Assembly: GCA_965202985.1 (NCBI GenBank)
Contig: CBDBCF010000001.1
Span: 512,001 to 576,000, forward strand
Reading direction: 5' to 3'
Origin: Longimicrobiales bacterium
GTDB taxonomy: Bacteria > Gemmatimonadota > Gemmatimonadetes > Longimicrobiales > Gaopeijiaceae
Length of the DNA stretch: 64,000 nt
Shown: positions 1 through 16,065 of the stretch, piece by piece
Numbering within the stretch: position 1 is the first letter of the stretch
Layout of the letters: each line of letters opens with the position of its first letter
The notes under the pieces: model-generated
What the model saw: only the letters and a program-made list of their open reading frames with translations
Databases searched by the model: none
Told to the model about the DNA's origin: nothing
Translations under genes and position numbers: made by a program

Positions 1-3000
1 TTTCGGCCGCGCGCGCGCAGGTCGTCCTCCAGGAGCTTGCGCAGCAGGTCCACGGCCAAGTTGCGCTGGGGCATGTCCCGCACCTCGGCCAGGAAGTCTT
101 CGGAGAGGATCGACACGTCGGGCTTGGGCAGGCCGGCGGCGGCGAAGATGTCGATCACGCCCTCGGGCGCCACGGCCCCGGCGATGATCTGGCGGACGGC
201 GTGGTCCAGCTCCTCGGCGGGTCGGGCCGAGCCGGGCGCGCGCTTGGCCAGGGAGTTGCGCACGGCCTGGAAGAAGGCGATGTCGGCGCGGATGCCCAGC
301 GCGTAGTCGTGGGGCACGGCCAGGGCGAACGCCTTCGACAGGGCGTCCACGGCGTCGGCCAGCCGGTCCTTGCCGTTCTCCTGGGCCAGGACGTGCTCCT
401 GGGCGGCGGGCAGGAGCGCCAGGCGCTGGGCGGGCGCGCCCTCGGCCCACGGGGACCGGTCGAAGCCGTGGAAGATGCCGCAGCACACCTCGTAGTGCTT
501 GCGCAGCGCGTCCACGGCGGCGTCCTGATCGATGGTCGGGCGCCCCTTGCCGCCGCTGCTCGCGTAGGTGGCCAGCGCCTCCCTCAGCTCGGTCGCAAGG
601 CCCAGGTAGTCCACCACCACGCCGCCGGGCTTGTCGCGGAAGACGCGGTTCACGCGGGCGATCGCCTGCATCAGGCCGTGGCCCCGCATGGGCTTGTCCA
701 CGTACATGGTGTGTAGCGACGGGGCGTCGAAGCCGGTGAGCCACATGTCGCGCACCAGCACGATGCGGAACGGGTCGGCCGGGTCGCGGAACCGCTTGGC
801 CAGCGCCTCCCGCCGCCCCTTGCTGCGGATGTGCCGCTGCCACTCCGGCGGATCGGAGGCCGAGCCCGTCATGACGACCTTGATCGCGCCCAGGCCGTCC
901 TCTTCCCCGTGCCACTTGGGGCGCTTCGCCGCGATCTTGTCGTACAGGTCCACGCAGATGCGGCGGCTCATGCACACGACCATCGCCTTGCCCTCCAGCG
1001 CTTCGCACCGCTGCTCGAAGTGCCGCACCAAGTCGTCCGCGACCAGCTCCAGTCGCTTGTCGGTCCCGACGACGGCCTCCTGCTGCGCCCAGCGCGCCCT
1101 CAGCTTCTCCTTGCGAGCGACTTCCTCGCCTTCGGTGACCTCTTCGAACCGCGGGTCGATCCGGGGCCGCTCGTCCTCGTCCAGGGCCAGCTTGACCAGC
1201 CGGCTCTCGTAGTAGATCGGCACGGTGGCGCCGTCGTCCACCGCGCGCTGGATGTCGTAGACGCTGATGTGGTCGCCGAAGACGTTCCGCGTGTTGCGGT
1301 CGGTCTGCTCGATGGGCGTCCCGGTGAAGCCGATGAACGACGCGGCCGGCAGGGCGTCCCGCATGTGCGCCGCGAAGCCGTCGATGAAGTCGTACTGGCT
1401 GCGATGGGCCTCGTCGGCGATCACCACGATGTTGCGCCGCGCCGACAGCAGCGGATGGCGGTCGCCGTGCCGCTCGGGGAAGAACTTCTGGATCGTGGTG
1501 AAGACGACCCCGCCCGCCTCCCGGTCCAGCTTCCTGCGCAGGTCCGCCCGGTCGCTGGCCTGCTCCGGCGGCTGGCGCAGCAGGTCCTGGCACCGCGAGA
1601 AGGTGGCGAAGAGCTGCTCGTCCAGGTCGTTCCGGTCGGTGAGGACGACCAGCGTCGGGTTCCTCATGGCCGGCTCGCGGACGATCCGCCCCGCGTAGAA
1701 CGCCATCGTCAGACTCTTGCCGGAACCCTGCGTGTGCCACACCACGCCGACGCGACGGTCGCCGGGGGCCGGCGGCTTCGGACCGGCGTCCAGTGCGCGA
1801 CGGTCCAGCACCTCCACCAGCTCGGCGACGATGCGGACCTGCCCTTCGTGCTCGGGCGCGAGGACGATCGGCCGGAACCGGGGGTTGCGGGGCCTCAGCA
1901 CGACGCGGGCGTGACGCCAGCCGTCGGCAGCGCCGCCTTCCGAAGCCTTCTCGCTCTCGTACCGCTTGACGGTGTAGCGCTCGCCGGTCTCCGGGTCGAT
2001 CTCGTCCCGCAGCTCGACCAGCACCGTCTTGCCCTGGCGCGTGCCCTCGACCGGCGCGGCGAAGAGGCACCACGCGCCGTCGGGGACCTGCGGCTCCATG
2101 GACTGCCCGACGACCTGGGCCACGAACATGCCCCGCCGGAGCGGGCGTCGCGGGCAAACCTTCGTCCACTCGAAGTCGTCCGCCGGAAAGCTCTGCGGGT
2201 CGCCGAACGCGCCCGCCGCGGCCTTGAGCGGAACCAGCGGGGCGGTCGTGACCCAGCGGGTTCGGGGGTCGGGCGGGACGACGACGGGGCGGAACGGCCG
2301 CACGGGCGGGGCCTCGTCCTGGGCGGCCTGCATTCGCGTTGCGCGCAAGGTCTCGCCGACGGCCACTTGAACGGCGTGATACTGGTGGTACCCCGCGATC
2401 TTCTTGGCCAGTTCCCCGCTCCCGTCGTCCTCGAAGACGACGAAGTCCCGGATCATGGCGAGCAGGTGCTCGGGCGCGCACAGCCCTTCGATCGCGACTT
2501 GAAGCTGAAGCGCCGACGGCTTGGCTTCCTTGTCCCCGGCGACGGTGCGCCACGGCTTGAACCACTCCCAGCCGCCGGTGAGCGTGCCGAACCGGGCCTC
2601 CACGCCGTCCGACACGCCCATGAACTCGTTCATGGCGAAGAGCGTCGGCAGCTCGGCCTTGTAGGTCTGGAGCTGGCGCCAGGCAGTGTGGACCGTGGCG
2701 TCGGGGTCGCTGGGGTGCTTGAGCTCGATCACGCCCAGCGGGAGCCCGTTGACGAACAGCACGATGTCCAGGCGACGCGTGTGCTTGCCCTCGACGACGG
2801 TGAACTGGTTGACGGCCAGCCAGTCGTTGCTGGCCGGGTGGTCGAAGTCGAGGACTCGGGCGTGGTGGCCGCGGATTCGGCCGGATGCGTCGCGGTACTC
2901 GACGGGGATGCCGTCGATCAGCATCCGGTGAAAGGCGCGGTTCCGGGCGTCGAGGGTGGGGCCGGCGGGGTGGATGAGCTTGCGGAGGGCGTCTTCGTGG

Positions 3001-3209
3001 GCTTTGCTGGGGAGGTCCGGGTTGAGGTGGGAGATAGCGGCCTGAAGGCGGGACCCCAAGACGACATCGCTGTGATCCGAGCGCTCCGACATGGAACCAC
3101 CGGGGGCGATGTCGGGCCCCTCGGCGATCGCCCAGCCGGAGTGGCCGAGCCACTCGAGTGCGACATGCTCAATATCGGATTCGTCGATCAAGAACACCCT
3201 TCCCGCCAC
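1..3209 (-). CDS. hsdR: Type I restriction endonuclease subunit R with an inserted S24 peptidase domain (3' end runs off the window)
   Basis: Hand translation of segments (start, 1681-2420, window edge) gives one consistent frame; absent from the ORF track because there is no stop in the window. N-term [14 protein letters not shown]; nuclease motif [18 protein letters not shown] (~2720-2770); [12 protein letters not shown]; Walker [10 protein letters not shown] (1713-1739); [10 protein letters not shown] (~1395-1420); C-term [15 protein letters not shown]. Start is GTG 3209 or TTG 3191. Confidence 0.95.
1806..2300 (-). other. S24 (LexA/cI/UmuD-like) serine-lysine peptidase domain inside HsdR
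   Basis: In frame: [14 protein letters not shown] (Ala-Gly 2211-2216) ... [23 protein letters not shown] (Ser 2100-2102) ... YTVKRY (Lys 1965-1967) ... [14 protein letters not shown] ... [11 protein letters not shown]. Confidence 0.88.
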
Positions 3210-3440
3210 GGAAAGCAAGGCGTTGGCTTACGATCTGGCAATCTAGCCGGATGTCCAATTGGGAACCACTGGCGTCCCCTCAGGATCACCCGGTACCCTT
3301 CGCTCCCCTGCCACCGCAGGAAACATCCGCTTCAACTGCGAACCACGGTTGACCGAATCGCCATGTCCTGCCACCGTTAACGACCATCACGGGCTTGCCG
3401 CCCGAGAATCTCTCAATACCGTACCCCAGGACCTACGAGC

Positions 3441-4943
3441 ATGCCTACCACCACTTCCCCTACCACACCCGAGCCCCGATCCCACCGACGATGGCAGGAC
3501 TACGAGCAAGAAGTATACGAGGCCCTTCGTAGGTGCTACCCGGATGCCGACATCGTCCGCGACGCAAAGATACTAGGACGTAATTCCAAGAGAAAGCGCC
3601 AAGTGGATGTACTCATCCGAAGCAATGTCGCTGGCTTCTCAATCACCATCGCCGTCGAAGCTAAGTGTCTGTCTCGAAAGATTCATGTCAAAGACGTGGA
3701 GTCGTTCGAAGGAATGATGAGAGATATTGGTGCCGAACACGGGCTACTGATAACTGAGGCAGGATTTTCTCAGGCAGCCATCGACCGTGCCCGAAATGGC
3801 GACTTGAAACTTGAGCTCGATATTCTGAGCATCGCAGAACTGACAAGCTACCAAGCAGAACACGGGCTTCCGTATTCCGGCAAATACGGTGTCAGCCTGT
3901 TTCCGCCCTTCGGATGGGTCGTTGATATTCGTCAGGTACTGCCATGTTGTGCTACTCTGTACCCGCGAGGCATGACCTTGGAAAAAGCTCAGGAAAAGAA
4001 ATCGTGGATGTACGTAAATTTTTGGCATACGACCGATGATCCTATCTCTTCGCTCACTGCGTTAGTGGAACAACAAAACCGCGAAATGACATTGTCGTAT
4101 AATGGCCTGCAGGTGTCAACTCACGAGTCGCCGCCCATGAGAAGCGATGGCATGAAGACTCACATACGAGTTGCTACCTGGCATGATTTGGATGGCAGCG
4201 AGGTTACGGGGTTTGTAGAGTTCGACGGCTTCATCTTCTACGCGGTATTGTTTACCAATGACGACTTTGTAGACAGAAACACCGCCAAACTTGCATACAT
4301 GCTGGCACATGTCCAGCCACTTACAATCGATTTCGACAACACAGAATTGATTGCCGCTCTCGCAGAACAAGCCGAGACGGAAGACGACATGGTCGCCAAG
4401 GCAACCTGCCATTACCGACTATCGTGGTTGTATCATCAAATGGATGATAGGGAAAACGCACTGAAGCACAGGAGGCTTTGTTGGCATTACAATCCAGAAC
4501 ATTATGGAAACATCGTCCCGCTGATCAAAGATGAACTGGAGACTGGTCATCTCATGAACGCCGAAAAGTGTGCGCTCGATTTCGTTTCTCGAGCACCAAC
4601 GAATCCAACAGTAATGCAAGACCTGCTACACGCTTACTGCTCACGTGACAGTTTTATAGACAGTTTTCACAAACTTGTCAGTAAGCTGATGGCCCGGCAT
4701 CGCGGTGAAGCGCTTGCGAATGTACTCTACCATTATGGAATCTATTTTGCAAACGAAGGCGATATGAAGAATTTCCGACAATACTTGACACAGGCGCGAG
4801 ATCTGTTTATCGATTGCAACGTCCATCCCGAAGTCGTGCAGCACATTGACGAGCTATTGCGGACCGTTCCGGGAATTTTTCGAGGAGAAAAAGGACCCTA
4901 CTTGAATTTTGTGAAAAACGTGGGCCCTCCTTATCCCGAGTAA
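3441..4943 (+). CDS. Mrr-like PD-(D/E)XK endonuclease fused to a middle domain and C-terminal TPR-like repeats
   Basis: WQDYEQEV...RQVDVLI...IAVEAKCLSRKIHVKDVESF...GLLITEAGFSQAA is an Mrr_cat-like pattern; helical repeats such as CHYRLSWLYHQMDDRENALKH and LYHYGIYFANEGDMKNFRQYL; GC clearly lower than the flanks. Confidence 0.75.
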   Translation: MPTTTSPTTPEPRSHRRWQDYEQEVYEALRRCYPDADIVRDAKILGRNSKRKRQVDVLIRSNVAGFSITIAVEAKCLSRKIHVKDVESFEGMMRDIGAEHGLLITEAGFSQAAIDRARNGDLKLELDILSIAELTSYQAEHGLPYSGKYGVSLFPPFGWVVDIRQVLPCCATLYPRGMTLEKAQEKKSWMYVNFWHTTDDPISSLTALVEQQNREMTLSYNGLQVSTHESPPMRSDGMKTHIRVATWHDLDGSEVTGFVEFDGFIFYAVLFTNDDFVDRNTAKLAYMLAHVQPLTIDFDNTELIAALAEQAETEDDMVAKATCHYRLSWLYHQMDDRENALKHRRLCWHYNPEHYGNIVPLIKDELETGHLMNAEKCALDFVSRAPTNPTVMQDLLHAYCSRDSFIDSFHKLVSKLMARHRGEALANVLYHYGIYFANEGDMKNFRQYLTQARDLFIDCNVHPEVVQHIDELLRTVPGIFRGEKGPYLNFVKNVGPPYPE

Positions 4944-5152
4944 TCTGCCATGGGAAAGAGGGACTCCAATTGTCGAGCGACAACCAAGGTGAGACGGTAG
5001 CGACAACCAAGATGAGACTGTCGGAGGCGGCCGTGATCTGATGTCGAGGGGTTCGGACGCGGGCTTGGTCCTGTCGTTCGACGGCGGGCCGTCGGTGATC
5101 GTGGAACGAGGTCCAGCTAGTTCAGTGTCTTCCCGAACGAGGAGGAGCGCTG

Positions 5153-6799
5153 ATGGCGGGCCGGCACGTGAACGATGGCCAGGCGAGGCAGTACATGAGG
5201 CGCCGGAAGAACGGTCGTGCGGTGGAGACGGCGGCGGCGAAGGCGGGGTTCGGCAGGGCGACGGGGTACAGGCTGGAGGCGGACGCTCGACTGCCGTCGG
5301 CGAAGCGGAAGCGGCGGGGCAGCAGGCGGCCGGACCCGTTGGGCGGGCTGTTCGAGCGCGTGGCGCTGCCGCTGCTCGAGCGGAACCCGGGTTTGCGGGC
5401 AGTGGCGGTCTTCGAGGAGTTGCGGAGGCTGCATCCCGAGCTGCCGGCGGGCACGCGGCGGACGGTCGAGCGGCGTGTGCGGGAGTGGAAGGCGCTGCAC
5501 GGTCCGGAGCGGGAGGTGGTGTTCGCGCAGAAGCACCGTCCGGGTCGTCGGGGCTACTCGGACTTCACCGCCATGGCGAAGCTGGGGGTGACGGTGGCGG
5601 GCGAGCCGCTGCGGCATCTGCTGTATCGGTTCCGGCTGCCGTACTCGGGCTTCGAGCACGCTCGCGTGGTGCTGGGCGGCGAGAGCTGGACGGCGCTGGC
5701 GGAGGGGTTGCAGGAGGCGCTGTGGGCGCTGGGCGGCGCGCCGGCCGAGCATCGGACGGACAGCTTGTCGGCAGCGTTCGAGAACCTGTCGAAGGAAGCG
5801 GCGGAAGACCAGACGCGCAGCTACGAGACGCTGTGCGCCCACTACGGGATGACGCCGACGCGCAACAACCGGGGCCGGGCGCACGAGAACGGGGTGGTCG
5901 AGAGCAGCCACGGCCACTTCAAGCGGGCACTGGCCGACGCGCTGATGCTGCGGGGCTCGAGGGAGTTCGAGTCGGTGGAGGCGTACCGCGCTTTCGTGGG
6001 CGGCGTGGTCGCTCGCCGCAACGCGCGCCGGAGCGCGGAGCGGGTCGAGAAGGAAGCCAAGGCGCTGCGGCCGCTGCCGGGCGAGCGGGTGCAGGACTGT
6101 CGCGAGACGCGGGTGCGGGTCACGCGGTCGGGCGGCTTCACGCTGGGCAAGGTGTTCTACACGCTGCCGTCGCGCATGATCGGCCACGTGCTGACGGCGC
6201 GCGTCTACGACGACCGCATCGAGCTGTATTTGGGCGCGAAGCGCTGCGACGTGCTGCCCCGCGTGCGGCCGGGCAAGGGCAAGCGGGCGCGCAACGTCAA
6301 CTACCGCCACGTGATCCGGTCGCTCCAGCGCAAGCCGATGGCGTTGAAGGACTGGGTGCACCGCGACCAGCTCTTCCCCCGCGACGCCTACCGCAGAGCC
6401 TACGACGCGGTCGTGGCCAAGCACGGCGACCGCAGAGCGTGCGCCGTCGCCGTCGCCCTGCTCGCGCTGGCCCACGAACAGGGCTGCGAGCGCGCGCTGG
6501 CCGAGCGCATCGACGACATCCTCGACGCCGGCGGCATCCCCGACCCCAAGGCGCTCGCACGCGAGTTCGCACCGCCCGAGCCCGGCGTCCTCGACATCGC
6601 GCCTCGTGTGCGCGAAGGTTCGCTGGACCGCTACGACGGCCTCTTCGGCGTCCGCAACGGCGACGGCCCCGCCGAAGGACCGGCCCCCGACGGCGCCCGC
6701 CGCATGGAAGGAGACGCTCGACGAGCCCCAAGCAGCCCTTCGTCGTGGACGACGCCGAGGTGGACCGCATGCTCAAGGAACTGCGCATGCCCACCATGA
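5153..6799 (+). CDS. istA: IS21-family transposase IstA
   Basis: HTH N-term; DDE core GYSDFT...HRTDSLSAAF...AHENGVVESSHGHFKR; the last ~25 codons look like read-through beyond an ancestral stop at 6722-6724. Confidence 0.9.
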   Translation: MAGRHVNDGQARQYMRRRKNGRAVETAAAKAGFGRATGYRLEADARLPSAKRKRRGSRRPDPLGGLFERVALPLLERNPGLRAVAVFEELRRLHPELPAGTRRTVERRVREWKALHGPEREVVFAQKHRPGRRGYSDFTAMAKLGVTVAGEPLRHLLYRFRLPYSGFEHARVVLGGESWTALAEGLQEALWALGGAPAEHRTDSLSAAFENLSKEAAEDQTRSYETLCAHYGMTPTRNNRGRAHENGVVESSHGHFKRALADALMLRGSREFESVEAYRAFVGGVVARRNARRSAERVEKEAKALRPLPGERVQDCRETRVRVTRSGGFTLGKVFYTLPSRMIGHVLTARVYDDRIELYLGAKRCDVLPRVRPGKGKRARNVNYRHVIRSLQRKPMALKDWVHRDQLFPRDAYRRAYDAVVAKHGDRRACAVAVALLALAHEQGCERALAERIDDILDAGGIPDPKALAREFAPPEPGVLDIAPRVREGSLDRYDGLFGVRNGDGPAEGPAPDGARRMEGDARRAPSSPSSWTTPRWTACSRNCACPP

Positions 6800-7091
6800 A
6801 GGACATGTGGCGGCCGTTCGCCGACCGGGCACAGCGCGAAGGCTGGTCCCACGACCGCTACCTCGCCCAGCTGGCCGAACAGGAACTCGCCGACCGGGCG
6901 CGCCGACGCTTCGAGCGCCACCGCGCCGAGGCCAAGCTGCCCCCCGGCAAGTCGCTCGACAACTTCGACTTCGGCCGCCTGCCCGGACTGTCCGAACGCC
7001 TGGTCCGCGTCCTCGCCAACGGAGGCGACTGGATCGACGACGGCCACAACGTCGTCGTCCTCGGCCCGCCCGGCACCGGCAAGAGCCATGC
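6721..7091 (+). pseudogene. istB: IstB ATPase, 5' fragment
   Basis: LKELRMPTM...EGWSHDRYLAQLAEQE...AKLPPGKSLDNFDF...NVVVLGPPGTGKSH, cut right after Walker A; expected start reads ACG. Confidence 0.85.
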
Positions 7092-7540
7092 GGGCGGTCG
7101 TCGTGGGCGACCACCGCGGCGCGGGCGATCGGCTGCTGGAGAATCGGGAGTTCCAGCGGTCAGCGCGCATTGGGGCTTCCGCATCCGGGCGTGCAGAGCA
7201 GGTCGGGCGAAGACGAAGGGAAGGTCGAGCGGCCGATCAGCTACGTCCGCAGCAGCTTCTTCTACGGTCGGGAGTTCGTCTCCGACGACGATCTGAACGC
7301 TCGTGCTCGCCGCTGGCTCGACACGGTGGCCAACGTTCGCGTTCACGGCACGTTGAAGCAGCGTCCGTGGTCCGCTTCGAGGACGAGCGGGGCCGGCTCC
7401 TGCCGTTGGCGGGGCGGCCCTACCGCTTGGTCGTCCCGGTCGCGGCTCGGCAGGCGGCGCCGGAGTCGGGCGGTCGCGTCGTGGCGGTGGAGCGGCGGTC
7501 TCTGGCCGAGTACGCCAAGATCGCGGAGGCGTCGTCGTGA
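7088..7540 (+). pseudogene. istA: 3' fragment of a second, different IS21 istA (frameshifted)
   Basis: Pieces across frames: MRAVVVGDH...ENREFQR / AHWGFRIRACRAGRAKTKG / KVERPISYVRSSFFYGREF...WLDTVANVRVHGT / VERRSLAEYA. Confidence 0.8.
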
Positions 7541-7910
7541 AGGCGGTGTCGCGCAGAGACCGGATCGCGGAGATGCTGGCGGACTTGAAGATGCCGGGCG
7601 CGCTCGAAGCGCTTGCCGACATGTTGGCCCGCGTCGACGGTGGCGCTGCGACAGCGGCCGAAGCGATCGAGGAGCTGCTGGCGGTGCAGACCGTGTTGCG
7701 CAACAGCCGTCGGCTGGCCACGGTGATACGGTCGAGCCGTACGGCACGCTGTCCGATCTCGTCGAGTCGCTCGACGAAGCTCAGGCCGCCGGCCGCCTCA
7801 AATAGCGGCTCAAGACGCTGACGCACCCGTCGTTGCTGGTGGTCGACGAGATCGGCTTACTTGCCGGTGAGCCGGAGCGCAGCGACGCTGCTCTTCCCAG
7901 CTGATCATGC
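7537..7910 (+). pseudogene. istB: Second istB relic with internal deletion, stop and frameshifts
   Basis: MLADLKMPGALEAL...EELLAVQ...RRL joined to TLSDLVESLDEAQAAGRLK*RLKTLTHPSLLVVDEIG (Walker B); Walker A region absent. Confidence 0.8.
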
Positions 7911-8007
7911 TAGCGCTCCACGTCGTGGAACCTCCGGCCGCTGGCGTCGTTCGCGAACATCACGCCCTCGAATCGCCCGCCCATGAAGTCCGGCCGCCTG
8001 CCTGGCG

Positions 8008-8081: not shown

Positions 8082-8499
8082 ATGGTCGCGAAGCGGCGAG
8101 AAGACGCTCCTGACATCCACGATCAGTACAGAGCACCCATGATCGCCCTGTGCGATGTAGCCGAGTATGAATTTCCCATCAGCTCCTATGAGACCCATCA
8201 GCTCCTATGAGATTCGAGAACTGGTCTCTCTTTATGAATACGAAGTCGCGTACCGCTGTGCAGAACTCGAGGATAAAGGATACTTAGTAACTAGCGAGAT
8301 CCAGTCGTCATTGTCGCAGGACGTTTCGCCGACGATTGTCGTCAAGCGCATTACAAGCTATGGACGGGACTACGTTCTCGTCGTGTCAAACCCGAAACGA
8401 TGGCCGAAAGTTAAGAAATGGATGGCCAGCTACGGTCTTCCTGCTGGTCAGGTATTTTCCAACCTAATCTTCAAACTGTTTGAATCAGCTAACAGATAG
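8082..8499 (+). pseudogene. DUF2513-like winged-helix protein, frameshifted by a 19-bp tandem duplication
   Basis: Removing one copy of CCCATCAGCTCCTATGAGA joins MVAKRREDAPD...EYEFPISSYE to IRELVSLYEYEVAYRCAELEDKGYL...RITSYGRDYV...RWPKVKKW; family call from the C-terminal pattern only. Confidence 0.6.
8175..8212. repeat. Perfect 19-bp tandem duplication
   Basis: CCCATCAGCTCCTATGAGA at 8175-8193 and 8194-8212. Confidence 0.97.
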
Positions 8500-10034
8500 T
8501 CAATAAGACTGTCCCGAACATTTGCAAGTAGAGTCGACTCGGCGACATTTGCCACTAATGCACTGTAAAGGGGAAACGTCAGTCTCTCGAACATCCTAAT
8601 CGCTTCAATCGGTGGCTGCACGACACGGATGTTAGCAAGTTGTTTCTTGTTGATCGCACCAAACACAGTGCCCATTGCATTATATTCTGTCAATCTATGT
8701 TGGATTTCCCTGATAGCATGAAAAGTAAATGACACGCACCCGGACTGATGGAGTACAGCCGCTAGGCCACGTCCAATACAGCATTTTTCGTATGCAATAT
8801 TCGCATGCCCGACTGGGGCACGAACACTGATTAAGGTACTGCCTGGCTGGGCAATCCGTTTGGGAAGTGAACAATAGACTCTATTCTTCGGAAAATGTAA
8901 GCCAAAATCGGCACTGCCTTGAAAAAATGGTAATCCGACGTCAGATTCGGTCGAGTAAGTGCGGCTAGGTGGAGACTGTCCCATTACGATAGAGTAGCAG
9001 TCACCCAGGCGCTCCACAGTCCATCCTTTCGGAATACTGCCAATATCCACGTTAACAAATTCCTCGGGGAACAAATTTATAATATCTTGCGTGATATAGT
9101 TGATCGATTTTGCTTCTGCGTCATTTCGCATCGGGACAAACCATGCTTTGTATATTGCTTGTATCAGTTCGGTCAGAGTTCCGTCCTGTTGTTGGTTCAA
9201 ATGAATCTTATCATCTAGCTTGGTCAGGACGTGAACATACTGACGCTGTGCAGAAATGGGGGGAATGGAGACACAACAGTCACTTAATGCACTAACGGGT
9301 ACTCTTTGCCTGCCTGATGTTCCTGTCATTTGACCGATAGCATACTGACGTAGCCGACTTGAACGGGCCAAATAGTACGCAAATGTGTCATCTGTCACGT
9401 CCGGTCGTCCGCGTGTGACAATGAACTCGGTAGATCCATGGGCATACTCGGAACCGCCAGACTTCGCACAGTACCGAGCAATCTTGCCGTTTTCGAGAGA
9501 CGGGGTAATGCGCGCCATCAGCGTATCACCACATCGAAAACGTGACCCGGTACCGGCGTATGAACGCTCGCTGGATGATTCTACACAGCGATTGCCAGGC
9601 GTGACGTCAGCCATACCGACAAAAGAATAGAGCTGTCCACGAACAAGAGGTACACTTGGGTTGATCATGACAGCATCACAGTAGCGCATGTCCCTATACT
9701 TGCTTTGCAAACTAGCGCTTCCAGTACTTCGAGAAAGTATCACATGATGTCGGTTGATCACTTTCTGAAAAGCCTCGGGCAAATCTTGCCACACAAGCAC
9801 ATCTACTCGGAACGGAAGATCGCTTTCCGCAAAAGCCTCCTGCAGATCCGATACTTGGTGACGTTGCTTGTGATCGGAAAAGACCACCAAATCGAGATCG
9901 GACTGCGGACGTGCAGTCCAGTTTACACGGGAACCGTAGGCCCATACATCTGTGTCAGGCAAGTACTGCTTGATCAGGTCGAATACTAGACATCTTTCGA
10001 CCGCCGTAAGGTCGATCTCGTGACTCAGTGCCAT
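8448..10034 (-). CDS. hsdS: Minimal nucleotidyltransferase (MNT) fused to type I RM specificity subunit HsdS
   Basis: First ~100 aa: VWAYGSRVNWTARPQSDLDLVV (GS-x10-DxD), ESDLPFRVDVL. Then TRD1 (GDTLMARITPSLENGK...MTGTSGRQRV), spacer (PPISAQ...LDDKIHLNQQ...IPKGW), TRD2 (MGQSP...ISVRAPVG...CCIGRGLAA). Confidence 0.92.
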   Translation of the reverse strand: MALSHEIDLTAVERCLVFDLIKQYLPDTDVWAYGSRVNWTARPQSDLDLVVFSDHKQRHQVSDLQEAFAESDLPFRVDVLVWQDLPEAFQKVINRHHVILSRSTGSASLQSKYRDMRYCDAVMINPSVPLVRGQLYSFVGMADVTPGNRCVESSSERSYAGTGSRFRCGDTLMARITPSLENGKIARYCAKSGGSEYAHGSTEFIVTRGRPDVTDDTFAYYLARSSRLRQYAIGQMTGTSGRQRVPVSALSDCCVSIPPISAQRQYVHVLTKLDDKIHLNQQQDGTLTELIQAIYKAWFVPMRNDAEAKSINYITQDIINLFPEEFVNVDIGSIPKGWTVERLGDCYSIVMGQSPPSRTYSTESDVGLPFFQGSADFGLHFPKNRVYCSLPKRIAQPGSTLISVRAPVGHANIAYEKCCIGRGLAAVLHQSGCVSFTFHAIREIQHRLTEYNAMGTVFGAINKKQLANIRVVQPPIEAIRMFERLTFPLYSALVANVAESTLLANVRDSLIDYLLADSNSLKIRLENT

Positions 10035-10441
10035 GATTCCTCGGTCATGGTCTCATAGAGGGCAGTGGCATCTGCTATGAAATCACCGACGACTCCAAGG
10101 CAGTCCTGCGCCTTAGTGATACTGTAATCGTGAGACGTGCCGATACGGTGCTTAGCATAGCCTAGCCATCGCTCCAATGGACCGTCAAGCAAGTCGTTTT
10201 CGAATGCGCACCGGAGGATGGGTTTGGGACTGTTGGGCACATCTGGAATGCCCAGGACGTCTACCAAGTACCGCTTGAGAACCTTCCACATGGAATCGTA
10301 GCAGGTTTCAAAACGATGGACGACTGATTCCGCAATGCCGTCCTGTGTGATCTCAGGCAACGATAGATCGAGCTGGCGATAGTTCGCGTGCTGCTCTCGC
10401 AACCGTGCAAGGGAAAGGCGGAACTTGTCGTAGTTGATCAT
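10025..10441 (-). CDS. HEPN-superfamily protein (HI0074 / nucleotidyltransferase substrate-binding type), putative RNase toxin
   Basis: [22 protein letters not shown]...SPKPILR...RIGTSHDY (R-x4-H-x-Y); ATGA overlap with the hsdM stop, 10-nt overlap with MNT-hsdS. Confidence 0.9.
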
Positions 10442-12036
10442 CGCGGTGCATCGTCGTTCGGAGGAGGGAACCCCAGTTTCGCCAGGTTGGCCTCGATAGC
10501 AACGTCTAGTCGCCGGGCCTCTGCCACCTGTTTATGCCATTCGGCGGTTAGGCGTCGCATCTTCACCTCGAAAGGCTCGTCTTCCTCTTCTTCTTGGGGC
10601 TCCACACCCACGTACCGACCTGGTGTGAGTACATAGTCGTAGCCGCGCACATCCTCCAGCGAGGCTCTCTTACAGAATCCGGGCACGTCTTCGTACTGAT
10701 CCGTTTCAGAGTCGGTGCGCCATGCGTGGTAGGTGCCCGTGATGCGGGATATCTCCTCTCCCGTGAGTGTCCGGTGGGTGCGGTCCACCATTCGCCCGAG
10801 TTTCCGGGCGTCGATGAAGAGAATTTCGCTGTGCCGGTCCCGTGAAAGAAACCACAGGCAGGCGGGAATCGGCGTGGAATAGAAGAGCTGTCCCGGAAGG
10901 GCGACAATGCAGTCCACTAGCTCCGCGGCCACCAATCCCCGGCGAATCGTCAATTCGGCCTTTTGGTGTGAACTCATTGAGCCGTTGGCAAGCACGAAGC
11001 CAGCCACCCCCCTGGGCGACAGGTGGTGGACGATGTGCTGGACCCAAGCGAAGTTGGCGTTGCCCTTGGGCGGGACGCCGAACTGCCACCGTTGATCTTC
11101 CTTCAGCCGATCGCCTCCCCAGTCGCTCACGTTGAAGGGCGGATTGGCGAGAATGTAGTCGGCCTTGAGGTCGGGATGGAGATCGTTGTGGAAGGTGTCG
11201 CCCTGAGCGATCTGACCCTCGATTCCGCGAACTGCGAGATTCATCTTGGCAAGTCCCCACGTCGTGTAGTTGGACTCCTGGCCGTATATGGAGATGTCGG
11301 GCTTGGCCGACGGCTCACCGTTCGCGGCGTGACCTGGCTCGCCGTTTTCGTTCGGCTTCTGGTGCGCCCGTATGAATTCGACGGACTGCACGAACATGCC
11401 CGACGAGCCGCAACAGGGATCGTACACGCGGCCCTGGAAGGGTTCGATCATCTTGACCAGCAAGCGGACAATGCAGTGCGGCGTATAGAACTGGCCGCCG
11501 CGCTTGCCCTCGTCGGCGGCGAAGCGGGAGAGGAAATACTCGTAGATCCGGCCTAGCACGTCCTTCGAGCGGGCGGCCTCGTCACCAACCATGATGTTGC
11601 TCACCATGTCTATAACCTGCCCGAGACGCGCCTGGTCCATAGACTGGCGGGCGTAGTCCTTCGGCAGCACATCCTTCAGTCCCGGATTGTCGCGCTCGAC
11701 GGCGACCATCGAGTCGTCCACCATTCGGCCGATGCCCGGTTGCTTCGCATTGGCTTTCAAGCGCTCCCATCGGGCCTCGGGCGGCACCCAGAAGATGCTC
11801 TTCGCCCGGTACTCGTCCCGGTCCTCTGGATCGGCGTACTCGTCTTCTTCGAGCTTGGCGTGCAACTCCTCGAAGGCGTCGGAGACGTACTTTAGGAAGA
11901 ACAGCCCGAGGACGACATGCTTGTACTCGGCGGCATCCATTGAGCCGCGCAGGGCGTCGGCCATCTTCCACAGCTTGGCCTCGTAGCCGGTCGTGGCGGC
12001 GGAGGTTGGGGGCTTGGCGTGTTGTCGTGCTGGCAT
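10438..12036 (-). CDS. hsdM: Type I RM N6-adenine methyltransferase subunit M
   Basis: [50 protein letters not shown]; start ATG 12036 assumed (ORF open to 12096). Confidence 0.97.
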
Positions 12037-12443
12037 CGATGTGGCCCGATCTTCTGACTTCTGACGTGTCCGAATCGTCAACATTGGCGTTGCCAACCGC
12101 CTCGGTCAAGCCCTGGCTTGGGGGCCGCCGCCACCGCAGGGGCCAAGCGGGAGCCACGGGCATGCCACGCGGGCCGTCCGTCAGGCGGAGGCTTCGCCTC
12201 GCCGACCTCGCCGCGACCGACGCACTCGGCGACACCCGGCGGGCACAGCGACGTCTCCGGCTACGCCCGATTCGGGGACGCGGGACGGGCTCGGCCAGCG
12301 ACGCCACGTCGCCCCCGTCCATCGTCTGCACCGTCACGCCCACCACCGCGCCCGCCTCCAGTCCACGACCTGCCCTAGCTTGTGACCCTATGCTCCAATG
12401 CCGGTGCAAGATCGAGGGACAGGCCGTGGCTCTCTTGCCTGTA

Positions 12444-14795: not shown

Positions 14796-15788
14796 CTAGC
14801 TCGCGAGTCGGGCGATCAGCTCCGCGACCGTGTCACACTCGATGACGGCGTCCGCCGCCGCATCCAACTCGTCGCGTCCGTCCATGCCGCCGATCAGGCC
14901 CGACAGCTCCACGGCCACGTCCGCGCCGAACTTCTTGGCCACTTGGCGCTCCAGCCGGATCTTCGCTTCCCGATGGCCCTTCCGATGGCCTTCCGCCCGC
15001 AGCCTTGCCATCTCTTCTTCGATCTGCGTGTACATGTCTCTCGCCTCCATCAAGTTGGTGATCTTCGACAGTTCCTCTTCCGAACGTCCCCACGTCCGCG
15101 CCGCGCCTATCGCCCACAGCGCGAACGCCTCCGCTACCCCCGCGTGCTCCGGACCCGGGTACGCCTCCAGCACCTCGTCCAGCACGGCCCGGACCTTCGC
15201 CGTGCCGCCGTCGCGCTCCAGCTCCCTCAACCACGTCAGGATGCGCCGCTTCCGCAAGCTTCGCCGGGGCACCGCTCGCATGTCAAGCACCTGGTACGGC
15301 AGCCGGACCGAAAGGCCGCGCAGCTGGGGCAGCGTGTGCGAGATCAGGTGGGCGATGTCGAGGAGGGCGTCCCAAGGAGGGGTGCCGTTGTGGACGACGC
15401 AGACGACGACGGGGGGCAGCCGGTGGTCGGCACCGGGCGGCGTCTCGCGGATCAGGTTCTCGTAGGCGTCGGCGACGTAGCGGAGGACGCGGGCGGCCAT
15501 GGAGGGGTCGACACGGGACTGGAACTCGAGGAGCAGGACCACGGAGCCGGGCCGGTGTCGGAAGTCGACGCGCCAGAGCATATCGGCCTGCCGGCGTTCG
15601 AGACGGGAGCCGACGTGCTCCGGGGTGATCTTGCGCAGCGAGTCGAGGTCGAGTTGGTCGGCCCATTGAGGTGCGAGGTAGTCTTGGAGGAGTTCTGCGA
15701 CGGTGGGGGTCTGGGAGAAGAAGAACTTGTAGACCTCGTCGTGCTTGCGGCGCGGTGGGCGGGGGTTGTCGAGGTAGGCGTCGGGCAA
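14796..15788 (-). CDS. Rpn/YhgA-like recombination-promoting nuclease (PD-(D/E)XK, Transposase_31-like)
   Basis: HDEVYKFFFS...LDLDSLRK...RQADMLWRV...LLLEFQSRVDPSMAARVLRY...LPPVVVCVVHNGTPPW; TTG start 15788 with AGGAGG RBS. Confidence 0.9.
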   Translation of the reverse strand: MPDAYLDNPRPPRRKHDEVYKFFFSQTPTVAELLQDYLAPQWADQLDLDSLRKITPEHVGSRLERRQADMLWRVDFRHRPGSVVLLLEFQSRVDPSMAARVLRYVADAYENLIRETPPGADHRLPPVVVCVVHNGTPPWDALLDIAHLISHTLPQLRGLSVRLPYQVLDMRAVPRRSLRKRRILTWLRELERDGGTAKVRAVLDEVLEAYPGPEHAGVAEAFALWAIGAARTWGRSEEELSKITNLMEARDMYTQIEEEMARLRAEGHRKGHREAKIRLERQVAKKFGADVAVELSGLIGGMDGRDELDAAADAVIECDTVAELIARLAS

Positions 15789-15790
15789 CG

Positions 15791-15833
15791 GGGCCTCCTG
15801 TGGGCGCGGGGGTTCGCGGGTTCGCGGAGGCCC
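15791..15833 (-). promoter_or_regulatory. Stem-loop that can mask the rpn RBS
   Basis: GGGCCTCC (15791-15798) and GGAGGCCC (15826-15833) are inverted repeats; one arm contains the Shine-Dalgarno sequence. Confidence 0.45.
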
Positions 15834-15954
15834 TTGGGGGCGCTCCGGGCCCGGGGGAATGGCCGGGCCGGAAGCAAGATGCACCCCGAAATTGGGCGTT
15901 TGGATAGCTGGATCGGCCTCACTTCGCGGGCCGTGGCCGTGCACGGCAAATTCG

Positions 15955-16065
15955 ATGAATGAAATGAAATCAGCTGATTTAGTATACATAATCACACATG
16001 ATTGCAATAACAAGTATACATAAATTCGTTATTTTCATTGTGAATCTAGAATCATCCTGGACAAA
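15955..16065. promoter_or_regulatory. AT-rich divergent promoter/operator region
   Basis: Perfect palindrome AAATCAGCTGATTT (15967-15980); direct repeat AGTATACATAA at 15981 and 16013. Confidence 0.5.

Follow-up and report, generated by a model that had tools for sequence, protein, structure and literature searches.

A LexA/UmuD-type S24 module inside a type I restriction subunit of a Longimicrobiales bacterium: a candidate RecA-triggered off-switch for restriction

We analyzed a 64,000-nucleotide stretch of the genome of a Longimicrobiales bacterium (GCA_965202985.1, contig CBDBCF010000001.1, positions 512,001 to 576,000; hereafter the window), at one edge of which lies hsdR, the gene for the R subunit of a type I restriction enzyme. 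We found that this HsdR carries an insert of ~190 amino acids (aa). By sequence comparison and fold modelling, the insert is a LexA/UmuD-type S24 module with its predicted catalytic parts complete. Both the autoproteolytic sensor domain and the enzyme are of known kinds, but we found no description of the two being joined in this manner. We estimate the probability that the module serves as a RecA-triggered, self-cleaving off-switch for restriction at about one half. A first reading of the window, made by a model from the letters alone (the sequence-only reading), had pointed to a LexA-like autoprotease in this gene. Residues are numbered here from TTG 3218; that reading counted from GTG 3209, hence its numbers are 3 lower. 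The features of the gene are as follows, in window coordinates.

1..3218, minus strand: hsdR, type I restriction R subunit, running beyond base 1 (open frame, TIGR00348, Pfam)
2565..3182, minus strand: nuclease domain HSDR_N, residues 13-218, with D151...E165-x-K167 (PF04313, E 1.7e-41)
2370..2396, minus strand: Q-motif helix AGYHQYHAV, residues 275-283, the final motor element ahead of the insert (alignment, also against insert-free HsdRs)
1767..2339, minus strand: insertion relative to ordinary HsdR, residues 294-484, ~190 aa, with the S24 module between a Pro-rich N-linker and a C-linker (13 nearest insert-free representatives aligned)
1803..2306, minus strand: conserved portable S24 (LexA/UmuD-like) module, residues 305-472 (PF00717, conservation table, AlphaFold, Foldseek)
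2211..2216, minus strand: predicted scissile bond Ala335-Gly336 (translation; invariant in 31/31 HsdRs with the module at this place)
2100..2102, minus strand: predicted nucleophile Ser373 in GQSMEP (aligned to the GQSM Ser of the genome's LexA and thence to E. coli LexA S119)
1965..1967, minus strand: predicted general base Lys418 in YTVKRY (aligned to TVK of the genome's LexA and thence to E. coli K156)
1713..1727, minus strand: Walker A motif GSGKS, residues 498-502, the first motor motif past the insert (aligned to EcoR124I HsdR residues 302 onward)

The hsdR frame runs from TTG 3218 to base 3 and on past the window edge to its stop, giving 1221 aa (L001:1053-4718, minus strand). TTG 3218, GTG 3209, GTG 3197 and TTG 3191 are all possible starts, and the choice among them is uncertain. 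The true start is probably GTG 3197 or TTG 3191, because homologues begin 4 residues before a conserved "ES". The NCBIfam model TIGR00348 (hsdR) scored 562 bits on the protein (cut-off 284.55). Pfam gave the domain order HSDR_N (13-218), Peptidase_S24 (328-467), SWI2_SNF2 (461-703), T1R_D3-like and T1RH-like_C, the order of nuclease, S24 and motor domains that the sequence-only reading had expected. We aligned 31 HsdRs with the module at the same place (internal-type HsdRs), which were 67-92% identical to the window HsdR. D151, E165, K167, GSGKS 498-502, DEAH 602-605 and all S24 residues were kept in 31/31, and A275, G276, Y277, H278, Q279, H281, A282 and V283 of the Q-motif helix were invariant. 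These alignments suggest that the window HsdR is an intact, apparently functional type I R subunit carrying an S24 module.

To find the nearest relatives, we scored the window HsdR against 1.84 billion cluster representatives. The nearest full-length relatives were 46-64% identical and 1010-1347 aa long, and their matches were split into two stretches, with the motor starting at ~residue 290 in the relatives compared to 485 in the window HsdR. The gap between "TLRA" and "GD(R/K)" was only a few residues in 11 of the 13 nearest insert-free HsdRs and ~12 and ~27 residues in the other two. In the same alignment, it was ~190 residues in the window HsdR and in P0023. We observed 192 in-frame codons, with no stop, between ...GETLRA (which ends at 2340) and GDRRVG... 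(from 1763). The content of guanine and cytosine (GC) was even across the junctions (71-74%). The architecture recurred in 31/31 aligned HsdRs and in 14/78 classified loci from named genomes.

On these points the sequence-only reading was borne out. Its count of 192 codons between the two HsdR landmarks was exact; LKAAAG, GQSMEP and YTVKRY were all present, its Ala332-Gly333, Ser370 and Lys415 becoming Ala335-Gly336, Ser373 and Lys418. The site is normally a short loop, as it had said, and the junctions it had wished to see free of a stop, frameshift or misassembly lie in a frame open for 1221 codons and are shared by 31/31 homologues. Its placement of the module between nuclease and motor stood in part. 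The module does lie between HSDR_N and Walker A, but it sits after the Q-motif helix and before Walker A, that is, inside motor domain 1 and not in a neutral linker.

Several lines of evidence identify the insert. Peptidase_S24 (PF00717) matched residues 328-467 with 25.4 bits against a curated cut-off of 23.3 (E 1.2e-5, profile positions 2-115 of 116), and it scored 28-33 bits in 9 other carriers. A profile of the module aligned by hhalign with the genome's own LexA (E 2e-5), and the GQSM and TVK motifs of the two were in register. We used a fold search because the module profile matched no solved S24 chain by sequence (0 matches among PDB sequences at E <= 0.01). An AlphaFold model of residues 300-480 (31-row alignment) had a predicted template modelling (TM) score (pTM) of 0.60 and a mean predicted local distance difference test (pLDDT) of 65, with 70-83 in the core and <50 in the cleavage loop. 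The top Foldseek match of this model in the PDB was the Mycobacterium tuberculosis LexA C-domain (6a2s, E 2.4e-5, TM 0.70 on the target), and all rows down to rank 40 were LexA, lambda cI or UmuD' chains or a lambda-186 hybrid repressor. A search of the ESM Atlas with the module returned generic S24 clusters only. Pfam found no winged-helix DNA-binding domain of the LexA kind in the window HsdR, which is thus not a LexA orthologue. A model of the 1072-aa window part of HsdR (31 close homologues; mean pLDDT 53, pTM 0.30) was unusable for placing the module relative to nuclease and motor.

A further line is conservation. We tabulated 122 copies, the best matches of the module search together with the genome's two copies (P0001 was dropped as a duplicate of P0002). 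A334 and A335 were present in 122/122, G336 in 121/122, and S373 and K418 in 122/122. Further invariant positions include F338, W351, F365, C384, R394, L400, D408, R414, Y420, S422, W434 and F448. The sequence-only reading had called the insert a genuine S24 domain with Ala-Gly, Ser and Lys at LexA-like spacing, conserved among homologues; Pfam, hhalign, Foldseek and the 122 copies agree with it. Comparison of 11 related loci suggests that the module is under purifying selection. Its identity (64-88%) equalled or exceeded nuclease-domain identity (59.5-87.3%) in 11/11, for example 67% versus 60.8% in L020, and it was less conserved than the motor and C-terminal part in 10/11.

The module shares with LexA, lambda cI and UmuD (MEROPS S24, PF00717) the same fold and the Ser-Lys dyad, and most positions that we mapped to the hydrophobic LexA pocket for RecA F203 are non-polar in it. 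The Ala-Gly site lies 38 residues ahead of Ser (35 in E. coli LexA), and Lys lies 45 residues past Ser (37 in E. coli LexA). Unlike LexA, the module has no DNA-binding domain and is embedded in a nuclease-motor protein of 1221 aa. It also differs in a loop longer by 7-8 residues ahead of the Lys strand and in ~25 extra conserved residues upstream of the site, and it is too divergent for a sequence-profile match to solved S24 chains. The closest solved relative of the whole protein, EcoR124I HsdR (PDB 2w00 and others), is distant (110 bits) and lacks the insert; its motif I at 302 aligns with residue 490 of the window HsdR.

We observed the module in several enzyme architectures. A search with residues 285-480 returned 1754 protein clusters of 671-2137 aa, and a second search returned 1557 shorter ones, mostly fragments. 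Among the best 120 of the 1754, on which our protein architecture counts are based, 36 were HsdRs with an internal module at the same place as in the window HsdR, 4 were HsdRs of another lineage with a C-terminal module, and 80 had a Type ISP specificity domain and a C-terminal module (one with a further 202 aa behind it). Pfam coordinates placed the module at the C-terminus of a full Type ISP enzyme (P0062), an MmeI/Eco57I-like enzyme (P0020), a PLD-SNF2 enzyme (P0045) and another HsdR (P0069). Identity across copies was 57-91%, and 57-69% between architectures. The C-terminal-tail carriers keep the same catalytic residues, and a cut there would trim the end only, whereas the module of the window HsdR lies between the Q motif and Walker A, so that a cut would split the enzyme. 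Some Type ISP-like carriers (P0096 residues 1316-1518; L035, L064) continue past the module for ~200-250 aa, a region that is internally repeated two-fold and matched nothing in Pfam.

Species-representative genomes contained 579 stretches encoding the module. We classified 78 of the best 80 (L068 and L071 had no match to a classifying motif): 14 were of the internal HsdR type (3 cut short), 2 had a 250-aa tail past the module, and 62 had it at the C-terminus. The internal-type loci were labelled Longimicrobiales (5), Thermoanaerobaculia (2), and Gemmatimonadota, Planctomycetota, Ca. Fervidifonticultor, Ca. Schekmanbacteria, Nitrospirota, Terriglobia and Bifidobacteriaceae (one each). The internal form thus belongs to a single HsdR clade with members in several phyla. 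The sequence-only reading had seen the purpose of the cut in releasing the nuclease from the motor. The geometry for this holds in the window HsdR, but the module is C-terminal in most carriers (84/122 copies of the conservation table and 62/78 loci), where that rationale does not apply.

Among 40 relatives of the window genome, 3 had the module, including 2 of the 3 same-genus genomes searched; it was found in 0 of 16 same-order genomes from other families. This patchy distribution is the pattern of mobile defence genes. The window genome has a second copy on contig 2, at the tail of a 1984-aa DEAD/Helicase_C/MZB (DUF1998) protein (L008:7232-13186, minus strand), with 69% DNA identity to window 1805-2240. 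The same-genus genome G001 has the same two carriers and module remnants, one with an internal TGA. A fourth S24 match in the window genome lies in a 266-aa frame at contig 2:640320-640538 (28.9 bits).

A search of a phage collection found no match to the module. The only match in a plasmid collection was L109, from Halomonas sp. PA16-9 (NZ_CP040452.1 1652241-1652666), a cultured strain, with 39.9% identity. The Halomonas module keeps AAG, GESM and TVK and is unannotated there. It follows directly after a P-loop open reading frame (ORF; DUF2075-like by eye) in another frame, a possible frameshift or sequencing error. Almost all listed carriers come from uncultured bacteria, which may be why the module escaped study.

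In a tree of the 122 copies, a branch with 98% support separated 83 C-terminal copies and P0096 from 37 HsdR-internal copies and the genome's helicase tail. The rows are the copies most similar to the window module and hence a biased sample. The tree was made by a quick method with the LexA outgroup on a very long branch; we read it as unrooted, and a change from tail to insert and one from insert to tail are both compatible with it. We also considered an origin by fusion of a split HsdR, with a nuclease and S24 tail in one gene and the motor in another, and rejected it as we found no split forms; short proteins with HSDR_N and S24 (P0124, P0135, P0172) look like truncations because they include the motor start.

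We assessed the host factors that a RecA-dependent switch would use. The genome's RecA has the L2 loop IGVMFGNPETT, identical to that of E. coli and including the Phe that enters LexA. The genome also has an ordinary canonical LexA (contig 1:2500109-2500459), which aligns to E. coli LexA S119 and K156, and it has ClpX. Rfam identified a transfer-messenger RNA (tmRNA; RF00023, 137.5 bits, contig 2:20222-20577, L101 1501-1856), whose tag we read as ANNDLALAA, while ARAGORN found no tmRNA in the genome. Excerpts of a structural study (bioRxiv 10.1101/2023.10.30.564768) describe a LexA cleavage complex of three RecA units with single-stranded DNA (ssDNA), in which RecA F203 enters a hydrophobic LexA pocket of V79, V82, F111, L113, V146 and V153. 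We mapped these positions by alignment (hhalign and a LexA alignment) to V329, A333, F365, A367, L400 and R414/Y415. The first five were non-polar in 111-122 of 122 copies, and they are also core residues of any S24 fold. Their conservation in the alignment is thus compatible with RecA binding and does not discriminate.

From these observations we infer the following course, from RecA trigger and cleavage to degron and physiological outcome. DNA damage would give rise to RecA-ssDNA filaments. A filament would stabilise the cleavable state of the module, as it does for LexA, and Ser373 and Lys418 would cut Ala335-Gly336. The cut would part the nuclease and Q motif (1-335) from the S24 core and motor (336-1221), and the exposed ...PLKAAA C-terminus would serve as a degradation signal. 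Restriction would stop while the HsdM/HsdS methylase stayed, amounting to built-in restriction alleviation. Where the module sits at the C-terminus, such a cut would place the tag on the enzyme as a whole.

The placement of the module guided this preferred reading, the RecA-triggered off-switch. A general mechanism must work from either position, because a C-terminal cut cannot separate nuclease from motor; the internal and the C-terminal forms are both accounted for if the whole part upstream of the cut acquires a degron, and nuclease release does not achieve this. We favour off over on because the insert lies inside motor domain 1 and the S24 core would stay attached to Walker A after the cut. 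A cut between the Q motif and Walker A would more likely disable than activate the enzyme. Since hsdR is accompanied by hsdM and hsdS, methylation could outlast the loss of HsdR. The candidate degron PLKAAA was conserved (L in 122, K in 99 and the three A in 111, 122 and 122 of 122 copies).

There is precedent for both halves of the mechanism. Excerpts of PMC5742171 describe C-degrons next to the cleavage site of LexA-like proteins that are active only after autocleavage. The likeness lies in a signal directly upstream of an autocleavage site that acts only as a C-terminus; the cargo here would be an enzyme domain and not a DNA-binding domain, and the degron here is predicted from sequence. 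According to excerpts of Simons et al. 2014 (PMC4231737; earlier work by Makovets and Murray), EcoKI restriction is alleviated through ClpXP proteolysis of HsdR. The two systems would share the target (HsdR), the loss of restriction with the methylase spared, and the benefit to a host in which unmodified sites appear following DNA damage. As described in those excerpts, EcoKI HsdR differs in having no protease domain and an unidentified degron, and an external AAA+ protease acts on translocating complexes. The window HsdR would make the first cut on its own.

Several points weigh against a RecA-triggered off-switch. The module model is of only moderate confidence overall, and with the cleavage loop at pLDDT <50 it does not show Ala-Gly seated in the active site. 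Pocket conservation is no proof of RecA binding, because the residues concerned belong to the core of any S24 fold. Ala-Ala resembles an ssrA-type end, but cleavage itself needs these residues, so the likeness adds no separate evidence for a degron. Destroying single-chain Type ISP/IIL-like enzymes would remove methylation too, a poorer fit to classical alleviation. EcoKI alleviation acts on individual translocating complexes, and the excerpted text of PMC4231737 argues that it is not a general SOS effect; a global RecA-driven switch would work on another principle. The enzyme might also hold together and remain active after a nick between the Q motif and Walker A.

We weighed four other explanations. 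The same off-switch could respond to something other than RecA filaments: the state of the enzyme itself, for instance when it has been translocating on host DNA for long, or a different co-protease. It could also be a timer, with slow spontaneous cleavage setting the lifetime of the enzyme. We give this reading a modest chance, well short of the RecA one. The catalytic residues are conserved, and the module profile has no sequence match to a solved S24 protein (0 at E <= 0.01). C-domains of LexA are expected to be far less conserved across phyla than the module, whose 57-69% identity between architectures hints at a special constraint. The tie of EcoKI alleviation to translocation state instead of SOS, as argued in the excerpts of PMC4231737, points the same way. 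On the other side, no co-protease other than RecA filaments has been shown structurally for LexA, cI and UmuD (8gms, 8gmu, 8gmt, 8trg), most mapped pocket positions stay non-polar in the module, and the genome's RecA retains the Phe. The occurrence of the module on unrelated hosts and at unrelated positions also argues for an external common signal over the conformation of a host enzyme. A somewhat slimmer chance goes to an on-switch, in which the uncleaved module holds the enzyme inactive and cleavage by RecA filaments or phage-made ssDNA licenses restriction during infection. Proteolytic activation is frequent in defence systems, a bulky insert beside the ATP site could block the motor, and C-terminal tails could be autoinhibitory. 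However, the S24 core would stay covalently attached just ahead of Walker A, so the steric block would not be removed, and the cut would separate the Q motif from Walker A. The carriers are moreover complete restriction-modification (R-M) systems with methylases, which are classically constitutive.

We regard it as improbable that the module no longer cleaves and instead mediates dimerisation or tethers the enzyme, perhaps to RecA filaments or to another copy of itself. C-domains of LexA and cI do dimerise, and Type I and ISP enzymes work in pairs, but invariant Ala-Ala, Ser and Lys with Gly in 121/122 copies across many phyla are not what one would expect of a domain that lacks catalysis. A misassembly, chimera or decaying gene could be suspected from the 2-contig assembly with 92% completeness and from IS21-like pieces 2 kb upstream. 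We ruled out such an artefact on the open frame of 1221 codons, the even GC of 71-74%, and junctions shared by 31/31 homologues and by named genomes of several phyla.

The RecA-triggered off-switch could extend beyond HsdR. Tentatively, and with less conviction than for the window HsdR, we consider that the module may be a portable "cut-and-destroy" cassette: RecA filaments would trigger self-cleavage, and the new C-terminus would be a degron for the part upstream. It would then stand on five or more kinds of DNA-cutting defence enzyme across over 10 phyla and form an SOS regulon at the protein level, turning innate immunity off when the cell's own DNA is damaged. The carriers we could name are two HsdR lineages, Type ISP and IIL-like enzymes, a PLD-SNF2 enzyme, YprA-type helicases and a DUF2075-type enzyme, and several carrier enzymes often occur in one cell. 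The internal HsdR form is the most drastic version of such a cassette, with the cut passing through the motor.

Restriction enzymes endanger their host when repair or recombination creates unmethylated sites. If the off-switch reading is true, a DNA-damage signal would be linked directly and post-translationally to immune shut-down, and this would explain how Type ISP/IIL-like and other enzymes without known alleviation cope. Engineering would also gain a simple and transferable tag for destroying proteins upon DNA damage. The internal form would give the clearest read-out, two fragments of ~36 and ~97 kDa (estimated from 335 and 886 residues). A remedy is known only for E. coli type I enzymes, and its recognition signal is still unidentified, according to the excerpts of PMC4231737. 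We found nothing in the literature on an S24 or LexA-like domain fused to HsdR, Type ISP or other restriction enzymes, in line with the sequence-only reading, which knew of no described HsdR of this type. The main text of a YprA-helicase paper (PMC12458937) does not contain S24, LexA, peptidase, autoprote- or self-cleav-.

We also examined the R-M locus around hsdR. Its other two subunit genes are intact in the window, with 5.2 kb of inserted genes between them and hsdR.

8448..10034, minus strand: hsdS, specificity subunit with an N-terminal nucleotidyltransferase domain (Pfam Methylase_S, Polbeta, NTP_transf_2)
10438..12096, minus strand: hsdM, methyltransferase subunit (Pfam N6_Mtase E 1.1e-101, HsdM_N)

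hsdM and/or hsdS lay upstream of internal-type hsdR on the same strand in 8/11 related loci. Variable cargo genes occurred between hsdS and hsdR among these loci, including two small ORFs in L020. The GC content was 46-50% in an Mrr_cat gene (3441-4943), 45-52% in hsdS, 59-63% in hsdM and 67-74% in hsdR, compared to 68.5% for the genome. This suggests, from composition, that the low-GC Mrr_cat and hsdS are recently imported pieces inside the R-M locus. The fusion of hsdS to a nucleotidyltransferase (Polbeta/NTP_transf_2) was also present in L017, another Longimicrobiales locus. Between hsdS and hsdR (window 5000-8000) we observed pieces of IS21-family transposases. One is an IstA-like ORF (5153-6799); a second stretch resembling the IstA C-terminus lies in another frame, and an IstB-like P-loop passes from one frame into a different one. 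These elements look nested or broken. YhgA-like (Transposase_31, Rpn-type) genes were found near the R-M locus at window 14796-16013 (minus strand) and between hsdS and hsdR in L017 (3858-5129, minus strand).

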